Part shown: positions 39,001 to 42,000 of the stretch, piece by piece
How the letters are laid out: every line of letters starts with the position of its first letter
Position numbering within the stretch: position 1 is the first letter of the stretch
Program-made: the position numbers
NCBI RefSeq assembly: GCF_054482525.1
Contig: NZ_JBTHVG010000003.1
Reading direction: 5' to 3' (one strand)
Source: a plasmid
DNA: 64,000 nt

Positions 39001-42000
39001 CGAAGTTCATCAGGCGAGGCCTAAGAAGAATATGTGTGGTTTCAGCCAATGCGGTGATCGGGCATTATAATTTGGTCGGGCTATTATACGTGGGTAAAGG
39101 TAGTGGTAGGGAGAGGATCAGGTTAAATTGCATTTTCCCGGTTGCCTTCCCTGGCCTACCGGTTTCAGGTCAGACGCTAAGACCAGCGGTAATACTTAAA
39201 GTAGTCCTCATTTACAGCCAAAAACTCCCTTAAACCGTTCATTAATCCCTTTTCAAACGCTGTAACGATAAACCGGTATCCGTCCAGTGTTTCAATGTAG
39301 TAGATCCCGCCCGGTGTTATTCCAACATGCAACACCTCGGCTGTCATCATAAACTGGCCTTCCGGAAAATCATGCGACAGGTATATAAAACCCGTCGTGG
39401 CCGGTGCGGGTGTGGCATTCACTAAGACACCGTTAAACTGCTGCCCGTGCCTCGCCGGTACAAGCTCACTTCCCCTGGTTGACTTATCGAGCAGCCCCTT
39501 AACATCTTTTTGCTCTTTAGATGAGGTATAGCCCCGCACATCACTCCCATCACCTGGGCGAGAGCCGGTGCCGACATGTGCAAGACGACGGTAAGCGCTG
39601 CGCATATTGATGTGGCAGGATGCCCCGGCTCTACCCTGAAGCCTTACGCCAAAATCTTCGCAAAGTAATAAAATCTGACGTAGCTGGTGTTCATACACGG
39701 ACGCAGAAAGTGAAAGGTTGAAACTGGAAAAGGTCAGTTCTAAAACCTTTTCCCGTTTGTCATTGAAATGTGCTTCCAGCCTGATGATTGGCTTTTCCGA
39801 CATTGCAAAAGCTTTGTCCGTTGCTCTGTACCGGCATTCATCTCCGAAACATTCTTCAACAACGCTGGCTATAACCGTGTCGTGATCGCCATCTTCCGGA
39901 GCTGGCACAAAGATTTCAAATTGTGCCGGTGTCTCCGGCTCCAGCAGAACGGGATATAAACGCGGAGAATTAAGCAATGCGCATTCAGAATTAATGAGCT
40001 TAACCCAGGCGCTTTTGTCGTCCGGATCCTTAAGCTGCTGTCCAAGGTTATCGCAAAAGTCTACTATCTGACGGGTATGCTCATCCGTGACTGCACAGAT
40101 CAGGTTAAGACCATGCGTGGCCATACTCAATTCCCGGGTTCGGGACTGGGAATTGATCGACCAGGGGTTAAGTGAAAGCGAAATAGGGCTTATGGAAGGG
40201 ACGACCGTCTCATTCTGCAAATCTGTAAGCTGGCAGTTCGCAGTAGGCTTCGGGGAAAGGGTACTAAATATGTAACTTGCCTATTGTTTAGTACTGGCCT
40301 GGATATAAAACATCGCGTCCATGCTTGTATCCCGGGATGAAATTGAAAATAGCTTCATTTTTAACCTTAATGGATGAGCGATTTATAGTCATGTGCTGAC
40401 AAATGGACATTATGTGCGCCATCATTCCATTCAAAGAATAATCGATACTTAGAGTTTACTCGAATGGAGGAATAACGGTTTGACGTCATTCTTAAGCGTT
40501 CATAACGCAAGCTGTTGGATAATAACTCCCGCTCACTCTGGACATTATCCAGCGTTTCGAGTCGACACAGAATCGCGTTAATAATTTCAGAAGGAATACC
40601 TGCCGTTGTTTTTCCATTACGGAAGAACTTTTCAAGCCGTCTGTCTTTAAATGAATGGATCATAGTTCCTCCGTAATAATTGACCTTAAAATTAAATTAA
40701 AAGGGCTTTGAATTAATGAATCCCTAAAATGCGGGCGGCGACTGCCAGCTGCTTATCACTTAACTGACGCTGGTGGGTTAAAGAAGACTTAAGGCTTTCC
40801 AGAAAATTATTACTGCTGGATTGCTGGGTGATTGCATCAACCATTTTTTGATGAGATCTGCACCATGCATTGAACGCAGAGTTGTGGGCGTTTTCAGTCC
40901 TCAAACGCTCGTTTTGCAAGGATGCTGACACTTTGCGGGCAGCTTGAGCATTAATGCGGTACAGCGCATTCAGCGTGTAAGCAGTGCGGGTCGTTTCGAG
41001 GCTGTAACCCGTGGCTTTACAAGCCATACAGCGACTTCTATAAAAATGCTTACGCTCTCCCCGACCATTGCATTTATCGCAAAGAATACGAAAAGTATAT
41101 TCCGCAGTACCTTTTACAGAATCAACACAGCGGATTTTTGCGCTGGAGATTTCAATTCCACTGCGATCATAATATTTGGTCATAATGTGATTCCTCCGGT
41201 TAGTTCTGGAGTAATCATGACAGAATGAATCTACTGGCTAATAACCTGAGAGTAAATATTTTAAAAAAACATTGAGAGAGGGTCTGCAAATTTATACACG
41301 AAGGATTCAAATATAATTTTGTTTAAAAAATTAAGAGCATTCTGAAGTAAAAGTGCATCAAAAAGCATTCATGGATAAATCATGTACTGGTGCCAGCCAT
41401 TTAAACGCGGGCATTGTTCCGGAGTGATTAAACGGTTTAGCATCATAGATTAAAACCAAAAGGAAGGCGTCCTTCCCGTCTCGGGAATATTACTTTCCCG
41501 TTTGCAATTTAAGAGCCACTTAATGAGAAAGTAATAATTAAGTCATGCTCAACTCTACATATTACATTGAGGATGGCGTAACAGGGTACGGCATACTACC
41601 GCACCCTTCTGAAGAGCTTATGTTTGAGGGAATTCTATAGCAAATGTGGCCGTGCCAGATTGACCACTTACAGCGGGAGTAACGGGATACGTGCGCTCTT
41701 CACCATTACCAAGATCCAGTGACAGCGATTTAGTTTCACCAGGCTGGACCGTAACTCCGGCAACCGTAACGCCGAACTGGGCATTTTTCTGAACAGTCAG
41801 GGTTCCGTTTAACTGTCCGGTAATGATAGAACCGTCCTGACGCCGCAACACACTGGTTCGGATGATGGCCAGCGGCGTGTTGTCCGTTGCTTTCAGTGCT
41901 ACGGCTGTGGCCAGCGTCTTGAGATTATCCAGCATAATCAGATTCGCAGGCTGGTAGGTAAAATTAAGCGTTTTAGTGGTCCGGTTACCTGATTCGTCAA

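Follow-up and report, generated by a model that had tools for sequence, protein, structure and literature searches.

What restrains a HigB toxin on a plasmid that has no HigA? The question is raised by the window analyzed here, a stretch of 64,000 nucleotides (nt) of an IncHI2 plasmid (NCBI RefSeq assembly GCF_054482525.1, contig NZ_JBTHVG010000003.1), in which a preliminary description had recognized a HigB-like toxin gene (40367..40663) lying without an antitoxin gene between a zinc-ribbon gene and an open reading frame (ORF) for 347 amino acids (aa); all three lie on the minus strand. IncHI1 and IncHI2 plasmids carry mcr-1, extended-spectrum β-lactamase and carbapenemase genes in Escherichia, Salmonella, Enterobacter and Klebsiella, and their maintenance modules are usually listed as "HigBA" from automatic annotation; no functional study of the IncHI HigB module was found in the literature. 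We find no HigA here, and the toxin sits in a conserved unit of three genes, the other two encoding uncharacterized proteins. Judged by its sequence, this three-gene HigB module is non-canonical and the copy in the window is a mutant in the gene of the putative partner, which a common sublineage of the plasmid has lost by a single base change.

The gene following the toxin has 393 codons (hereafter gene 3; 39177..40358, minus strand) and starts 8 nt after the toxin stop codon. Read as one frame, 40358..39177 comprises 393 codons, only one of them a stop, the amber codon (TAG) at codon 26 (40281..40283, minus strand), whereas on an IncHI1 plasmid the toxin, 90% identical, is followed after 8 nt by an unbroken ORF of 393 codons. 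Nucleotide alignment shows the same stretch of the window to be collinear, without indels, with uninterrupted homologues of 392-396 aa in IncHI1 plasmids, in R478 (the IncHI2 prototype) and in other relatives. The base that differs is at 40283, which is T on the minus strand of the window and C in the intact allele, so that Gln26 has changed from CAG to TAG. This single C>T substitution accounts for the apparent gap and for the two ORFs reported around it. The 146 bp after the toxin, previously taken as intergenic, belong to the 5' part of gene 3; the 25-codon ORF (40281..40358, minus strand) does exist but is no separate gene, since it comprises codons 1-25 and the amber codon (MKLFSISSRDTSMDAMFYIQASTKQ and then the stop, vs. 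MKLFGISSRDSGMDAMFYIQASTKQQ and onward in IncHI1); and the 347-aa ORF (39177..40220, minus strand), which indeed has no helix-turn-helix (HTH) domain, results from mechanical ORF calling at an in-frame TTG and corresponds to codons 47-393, namely the remainder of gene 3.

The preliminary description had allowed that a canonical higA might emerge next to the toxin once an error of sequencing or annotation was corrected. What reversal of the amber codon restores is instead the 393-aa orphan, and the codon appears to be a genuine polymorphism. The IncHI1 plasmid, R478 and pD90-1 all have CAG, and over 2,751 bases (38900..41650) the base at 40283 is the sole difference between the window and pD90-1. 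Searches of PLSDB with 41-mers centred on the codon-26 site, in which seeding is possible only on an exact match to the allele, recovered TAG in 294 records and CAG in 729, R478 among the latter (294/1,023 TAG, ~29%). The TAG records comprise 153 from Escherichia, 120 from Salmonella and 14 from Klebsiella, plus others. Gln26 is invariant in the rest of the gene-3 family and is Gln in 16/16 metagenome loci. Given this number of records and the invariance of Gln26 elsewhere, TAG is evidently a real, recent and widely spread polymorphism and not a sequencing error. The allele thus poses the question of whether it alters the stability of the plasmid or its cost to the host. The inverted repeat of 8 bp with an 18-nt spacer reported earlier (GTACTAAA-N18-TTTAGTAC; 40261..40294) is also present, but it straddles the amber codon inside coding sequence and is probably due to chance: comparable repeats (8 bp, perfect, spacers of 10-30 nt) number 98 in the window, i.e. 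0.22 per 146 bp, the arms at the corresponding site of IncHI1 are not complementary, and the repeat is unused in the minimum-free-energy fold of the RNA (z-score +0.72).

The toxin itself (gene 2; 40367..40663, minus strand) is intact and its assignment to the HigB family, within the RelE/ParE superfamily, is solid. The 98-aa product matches Pfam PF05015 with E=5.4e-18 and 65.7 bits (cut-off 27) over residues 4-88, and its closest solved relative is Proteus vulgaris HigB (4mct, E=7.5e-6), with the alignment running from residue 1 as first noticed; Pseudomonas putida GraT (6f8s) also matches, with E=4e-4. Across 12 aligned toxins, including HigA-paired ones, M1, I2, S4, F5, L35, L47, S66, V69, R74, F77 and H91 are invariant. 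In the comparison with HigB that had been proposed earlier, this alignment sets R74 against R73 and H91 against H92 of P. vulgaris (Rts1) HigB, while pairwise HMMER alignment places the C-terminus differently. The position of His54 in Rts1 HigB is occupied by Glu throughout this toxin subfamily, close relatives paired with HigA included. Pairwise ratios of nonsynonymous to synonymous substitution (dN/dS) of 0.03-0.18 make the toxin the most conserved of the three genes. Hence, the option of a domesticated or inactive toxin is not favored: with this low dN/dS and with Arg74 and His91 invariant, the protein does not look inactive. It is basic (isoelectric point, pI, 9.7), has GGAGG as ribosome-binding site and is annotated identically (WP_000581857.1) in TAG and CAG plasmids. 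With its high synonymous divergence (dS, 1.6-1.7), the gene gives no sign of a hidden constraint from an overlapping feature.

The operon opens, as previously described, with a gene for a 156-aa protein with two CxxC motifs (gene 1; 40713..41183, minus strand). The motifs CDKCNGRG and CMACKATG form a putative DnaJ-type CxxCxGxG knuckle, followed by a helical C-terminal half; the match to DnaJ_CXXCXGXG (PF00684) reaches 20.8 bits, below the 32.7 cut-off, while the cysteines are invariant or nearly so in the family. An AlphaFold2 model, with a predicted local distance difference test score (pLDDT) of 85, displays N-terminal strands, the knuckle loop and five helices. The protein is strongly basic (pI 9.8, net charge +13), and its gene has a strong GGAGG ribosome-binding site and pairwise dN/dS of 0.10-0.25. 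Relatives of ~30% identity, annotated as 'YuiA family', stand alone beside genes for immunoglobulin-like (Ig-like) proteins in IncHI1B plasmids. Large Ig-like (Big_3) proteins flank the zinc-ribbon or YuiA-like genes in both IncHI2 (41618-44035, minus strand) and IncHI1B (L018, L019 3483-6534), a neighbourhood that predates the association of zinc ribbon and toxin.

Every locus with enough flanking sequence contains the same trio, consisting of the zinc-ribbon gene (155-162 aa), the HigB-like gene (98 aa) and gene 3, with a spacer of 8-10 nt after the toxin. Across IncHI1/IncHI2-type plasmids the three genes stay together, with protein identities of 36-90%, and they do so even at loci whose Ig-like and other flanking genes have been reshuffled. 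Among the plasmid lineages that were compared, identity is 60-94% for the toxin and 36-87% for the third protein, and pairwise dN/dS indicates purifying selection on all three genes, the toxin most strongly. A scan with one genome per species gave 80 loci of related toxins, of which the best 42 were examined (37 outside the IncHI types and 5 IncHI), with HigA-like HTH ORFs called directly downstream of the toxin by phmmer at E<=1e-3. In this set of the best 42 of 80, the downstream slot holds a HigA-like HTH protein in 36/37 outgroup loci and in 0/5 IncHI loci. Ancestrally, the gene of the putative partner begins 8 nt after the toxin, in a slot that HigA holds elsewhere. Only two groups depart from the HigA pattern, namely the IncHI1/IncHI2 type, with gene 3, and the sister type IncHI1B of Klebsiella. 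The IncHI1B toxin has 103 aa and is 42-44% identical; 6-11 nt after it comes the gene of an acidic protein of 105-107 aa, by its position another non-canonical partner in place of HigA. This slot protein (L003 3501-4142, L004 3501-4141, L033 3001-3640) has no HTH, Pfam or PDB match and is unrelated to HigA or to the neighbours of the window toxin. Copies of the trio also occur on complete chromosomes of Enterobacter hormaechei (B17-3, CP169086.1, L029; and CP077392.1, L026), presumably as integrated IncHI-type plasmids.

Where a canonical higBA module has an XRE-type HTH protein, HigA, directly downstream of the toxin, the window has a 393-codon orphan without HTH or Pfam match, and the earlier statement that no HigA gene follows the toxin is therefore borne out. 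No HigA is adjacent to the toxin or elsewhere in the window, and none is annotated on the complete 254-kb plasmid p14EC029b, which carries only HipBA and Hok and whose sequence matched every stretch of the window compared with it. An RNA antitoxin of type I or type III finds no sign at the locus either: there are no tandem repeats inside the three-gene unit, Rfam gives no credible match (a lone hit at E=0.92, far under the gathering score of the family), and the fold z-score and the high dS of the toxin gene, both reported above, add no such signal.

The full-length third protein belongs to a narrow family. Its homologues, at 39-88% identity, all have 392-396 aa, and a search of 1.84 billion representative proteins returned only this family and stand-alone relatives, of ~115-145 aa, of its C-terminal 100 residues. 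No significant match was obtained in Pfam or NCBIfam (best E=0.065 and 0.074, to unrelated families) or in PADLOC, and nothing below E=0.5 among PDB sequences. The protein is acidic (pI 5.7), particularly so in residues 79-154 (pI 4.5), and pairwise dN/dS of its gene is 0.11-0.35. In the annotation of p14EC029b, the three products are named, in transcription order, hypothetical (156 aa), "type II toxin-antitoxin system RelE/ParE family toxin" (98 aa) and "flavin reductase" (315 aa). The last name, given by the NCBI Prokaryotic Genome Annotation Pipeline (PGAP) to a product of 315 aa called from the ATG at 40124 (39177-40124), which is the invariant Met79 of gene 3, is unsupported by any Pfam, NCBIfam, PDB sequence or fold match, and other records name the product of gene 3 hypothetical. 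Our analysis hence corrects both this misleading label and the apparent call of an orphan toxin. The most conserved part of the protein is formed by the C-terminal ~100 residues (39177-39480), with the motifs PARHG..FNGV, TTGF.Y.S, P.GQF..T.EV, YIET.DG.RF and N..YF..YRW; this part is apparently an undescribed domain family. In metagenomes, its stand-alone relatives lie within arrays of small genes of unknown function (P0053-P0079; L023 3001-3423; L025 3001-3399). Profile positions 90-136 gave matches to guanosine and deoxycytidine deaminases that are not significant (E 0.56-1.1) and lack any HAE/PCxxC motif.

The reading we favor, at a probability of about 0.4, is that the trio constitutes a regulator-toxin-partner unit, in which the 393-aa protein would be an evolutionary replacement of HigA and the zinc-ribbon protein the regulator. 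It is suggested by the position of gene 3, its coupling distance, the charge of its product (HigA and the IncHI1B partner are acidic too) and the pattern in relatives. The toxin would be an active ribosome-dependent mRNA endonuclease and, in the IncHI lineage, the 393-aa protein would have taken over from HigA as its protein partner, probably via the acidic central part. Since this putative partner has no recognizable DNA-binding domain, the basic zinc-ribbon protein produced from the predicted shared transcript may supply regulation through binding of nucleic acids, in a division of labour akin to that of omega-epsilon-zeta or paaR2-paaA2-parE2. In the lineage of the window, the full-length partner would have been lost while the plasmid thrives, and the toxin would have to be restrained by weak or repressed expression, by the zinc-ribbon protein as a back-up neutralizer, or by both. 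That antitoxins can be replaced by unrelated proteins is an established theme (e.g. PMC10440598).

Several observations weigh against this regulator-toxin-partner reading. The antitoxin of a canonical module would be expected to be present whenever its toxin is intact, whereas gene 3 has been broken repeatedly by amber mutation, insertion sequences (IS) and deletions with the toxin unchanged. Besides the amber codon of the 294 plasmids, ISKpn26 and IS1 are inserted in gene 3 of two TAG plasmids, IS903B is accompanied by loss of the gene after ~codon 154, IS21 lies at ~codon 250, and a chromosomal copy is truncated at ~codon 205. In PLSDB, gene 3 is split or partial in ~40/1,030 IncHI2 records, compared with 2/1,083 matching records for the toxin gene (~1,026 of them IncHI2) and 0/1,026 IncHI2 records for the zinc-ribbon gene, figures that count records rather than independent events. 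Losses of this kind would not be expected of an antitoxin that is essential and stoichiometric. Moreover, the ribosome-binding site of gene 3, TAAGG, is weaker than the GGAGG of the toxin, no fold or domain evidence ties the third protein to any antitoxin, and the stand-alone relatives of its C-terminal domain do not adjoin toxins. These natural knock-outs show that a plasmid can carry an intact toxin without the full-length third protein, and so something else would keep the toxin of the window harmless. As for the insertions themselves, IS1, ISKpn26, IS903B and IS21 were seen in gene 3 (L021, L022, L109, L110: pHZ010, pZ1323HSL0009-2, pIncHI2-1502264, pR19.0144_302k) and none in the two upstream genes.

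That something else could be the zinc-ribbon protein, if it were the true neutralizer in an antitoxin-first arrangement as in relBE or parDE, with the 393-aa protein a dispensable accessory (sensor, modulator or cargo). We consider this somewhat unlikely, even if several features speak for it. Gene 1 is full length in all the 1,026 IncHI2 records of PLSDB, where gene 3 is often broken; it is under purifying selection; and its upstream position and strong GGAGG should bring the protein to match or exceed the abundance of the toxin. MqsA is a precedent for a zinc-binding antitoxin of a RelE-fold toxin. The only early frameshift of gene 1, at codon 13 by a 2-bp deletion, occurs in Enterobacter asburiae (L028; JAPDCR010000025.1, 1089-2934) and coincides with a gene 3 frameshifted by a 5-bp deletion and with four substitutions in the toxin relative to its closest relative, S25A, D39N, R68H (at a near-invariant residue) and Q80H, so that this locus has the appearance of a decaying copy of the module. 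However, the zinc-ribbon protein is as strongly basic as the toxin, which is unusual for an antitoxin that binds it; the spacer of 49-63 nt between the two genes is looser than the typical coupling of toxin-antitoxin (TA) pairs; the sister IncHI1B toxin has no adjoining zinc-ribbon gene, its YuiA-like homologue lying elsewhere beside Ig-like genes; and one short-read assembly (L111) carries a frameshift at codon 99 of gene 1 despite a wild-type toxin. The disruption of either neighbour alongside a wild-type toxin, on a plasmid without HigA, could also mean that no dedicated antitoxin is needed, the toxin being tolerated at its native level, which may be silenced or conditional, or recruited to a non-killing accessory or establishment role. 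The promoter family that the trio shares with several operons of small genes, described below, suggests a common and possibly tight control of this kind. In what is a small sample, an unchanged toxin was never seen where both neighbours are broken. We deem the explanation without a dedicated antitoxin unlikely. Neither neighbour is as well conserved as the toxin, whose invariant Arg and His recur in its HigA-paired relatives, which points to retained enzymatic activity, and the maintenance of the trio at 36-90% identity amid rearranged flanks is hard to explain if the neighbours were unrelated to the toxin.

Gene 3 might still act as the antitoxin in the window itself, either because ribosomes occasionally read through the amber codon or because translation restarts, at Met79 (40124) to give 315 aa or at the TTG (40220) to give 347 aa. 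In all the natural truncations examined outside the TAG lineage, codons 1-154 or more are retained, and the product of restart at Met79 would span residues 79-393; therefore the acidic segment 79-154 would be common to all variants. Met79 is moreover invariant, and the 315-aa product is the one that PGAP annotates. Yet a product restarted from Met79 is speculative, because no conserved Shine-Dalgarno sequence precedes this residue in the homologues and that of the window is weak. The two sites are 60 and 157 nt away from the stop codon, the minus strand shows no internal promoter-like site, one TAG plasmid has ISKpn26 between the toxin and the residual ORF, and the yield of restart would be far under that of the toxin translated from GGAGG; altogether we find this explanation quite improbable. 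The least credible, to the point that we give it scarcely any chance, is a canonical HigA supplied in trans by another part of the plasmid or by the host chromosome, a possibility raised in the preliminary description. Automatic annotation in several surveys does list 'HigB-HigA' on IncHI2 plasmids (PMC8092524, PMC6978640), but PMC8466100 describes the HigB gene as 'flanked by hypothetical proteins', and tblastn with three HigA proteins returned nothing below E=0.09 in a search confined to the plasmid. Residence of the plasmids in at least seven genera makes a host-specific HigA unlikely as well. Apart from the regulator-toxin-partner reading as such, we have considered the broader proposition that the controlling partner of this toxin, on IncHI resistance plasmids that have spread worldwide, is of an undescribed kind, either the 393-aa protein with its orphan fold or the DnaJ-type zinc-ribbon protein, perhaps acting on the target (ribosome or RNA) and not on the toxin. 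This remains doubtful; if true, the ~29% of IncHI2 plasmids in which the downstream partner is knocked out would represent a natural experiment on the need of the toxin for its partner.

The module can be compared with known systems of similar content. It resembles higBA of Rts1 (P. vulgaris) in toxin family (PF05015, ~30% identity to Rts1 HigB from residue 1), in the probable equivalents of Arg73 and His92, in having the toxin first with the partner gene a few bases after its stop codon, and in being plasmid-borne. It differs in its downstream partner, which has 393 aa, no HTH and no detectable relation to HigA, in the third gene upstream and in the Glu that replaces His54. With omega-epsilon-zeta and paaR2-paaA2-parE2 it shares three genes in a predicted single transcript, a candidate neutralizer without DNA-binding domain and a small basic protein encoded first, but there is no relation of sequence or fold, the order is regulator-toxin-partner and not regulator-antitoxin-toxin, and DNA binding by the zinc ribbon is putative. 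As in mqsRA, a toxin of the RelE superfamily adjoins a protein with a four-cysteine zinc site, although here the zinc-ribbon gene is upstream and not downstream and its product is strongly basic. The toxin-antitoxin-chaperone (TAC) system HigB1-HigA1-SecB-like (Rv1955-57) also combines a HigB-family toxin with a non-classical third component in a three-gene operon, and the DnaJ-type knuckle hints at protein-protein handling in our module too; in contrast to TAC, it has no HigA, neither neighbour contains a SecB-like domain by Pfam and NCBIfam, and the gene order is another. Finally, an intact toxin beside a broken partner gene, as found in the window, is reminiscent of degenerate or orphan toxin loci (e.g. 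OrtT, or TA loci whose antitoxin gene is broken), from which the module departs in that the intact trio is the majority state under purifying selection and the break is a polymorphism of recent date rather than a sign of long-standing decay.

Over the 2.5 kb around the locus, many IncHI2 plasmids from Escherichia, Salmonella, Enterobacter and Klebsiella match the window with 100% identity, and 992 of the 1,097 PLSDB records that match the region are conjugative. On the 5' side, a terminator-like hairpin with a T-run (GGGAAGGACGCCTTCCT then TTTGGTTTTA; 41461..41477, minus strand) follows the upstream Ig-like gene and marks the boundary of the unit; on the 3' side, the boundary is set by the next promoter box (38817..38827, minus strand), ahead of a gene for 125 aa. 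With these limits, the transcription unit most likely consists of just the zinc-ribbon, HigB and 393-codon genes.

The putative promoter of the operon (41214..41247, minus strand) is inferred from a repeated box, AGGTTATTAGC (41247..41237), and from its layout, with a -35-like TTAGCC (41241..41236), a spacer of 16 nt and a -10-like CATGAT (41219..41214). A scan with consensus promoters did not call it, because its -35 element matches only 3/6 positions. The box occurs six times in the window vs. 0.87 expected, a number reached in 0/100 shuffles, in agreement with the initial assignment of this promoter to a conserved family. The same box and layout precede five further ORFs of the window, at 12674, 26020, 33722, 38827 and 44508; besides that of the trio (41237-41247), the copies of the box lie at 38817-38827, 33712-33722, 26010-26020 and 12664-12674, all on the minus strand, and at 44508-44518 on the plus strand. 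Members of the family have the form (CTC)AGGTTATTAGC with a TATAAT-like hexamer ~17 nt on, each located 50-70 nt upstream of an operon of small genes, and this repetition suggests that one regulator may govern much of this region of the plasmid.

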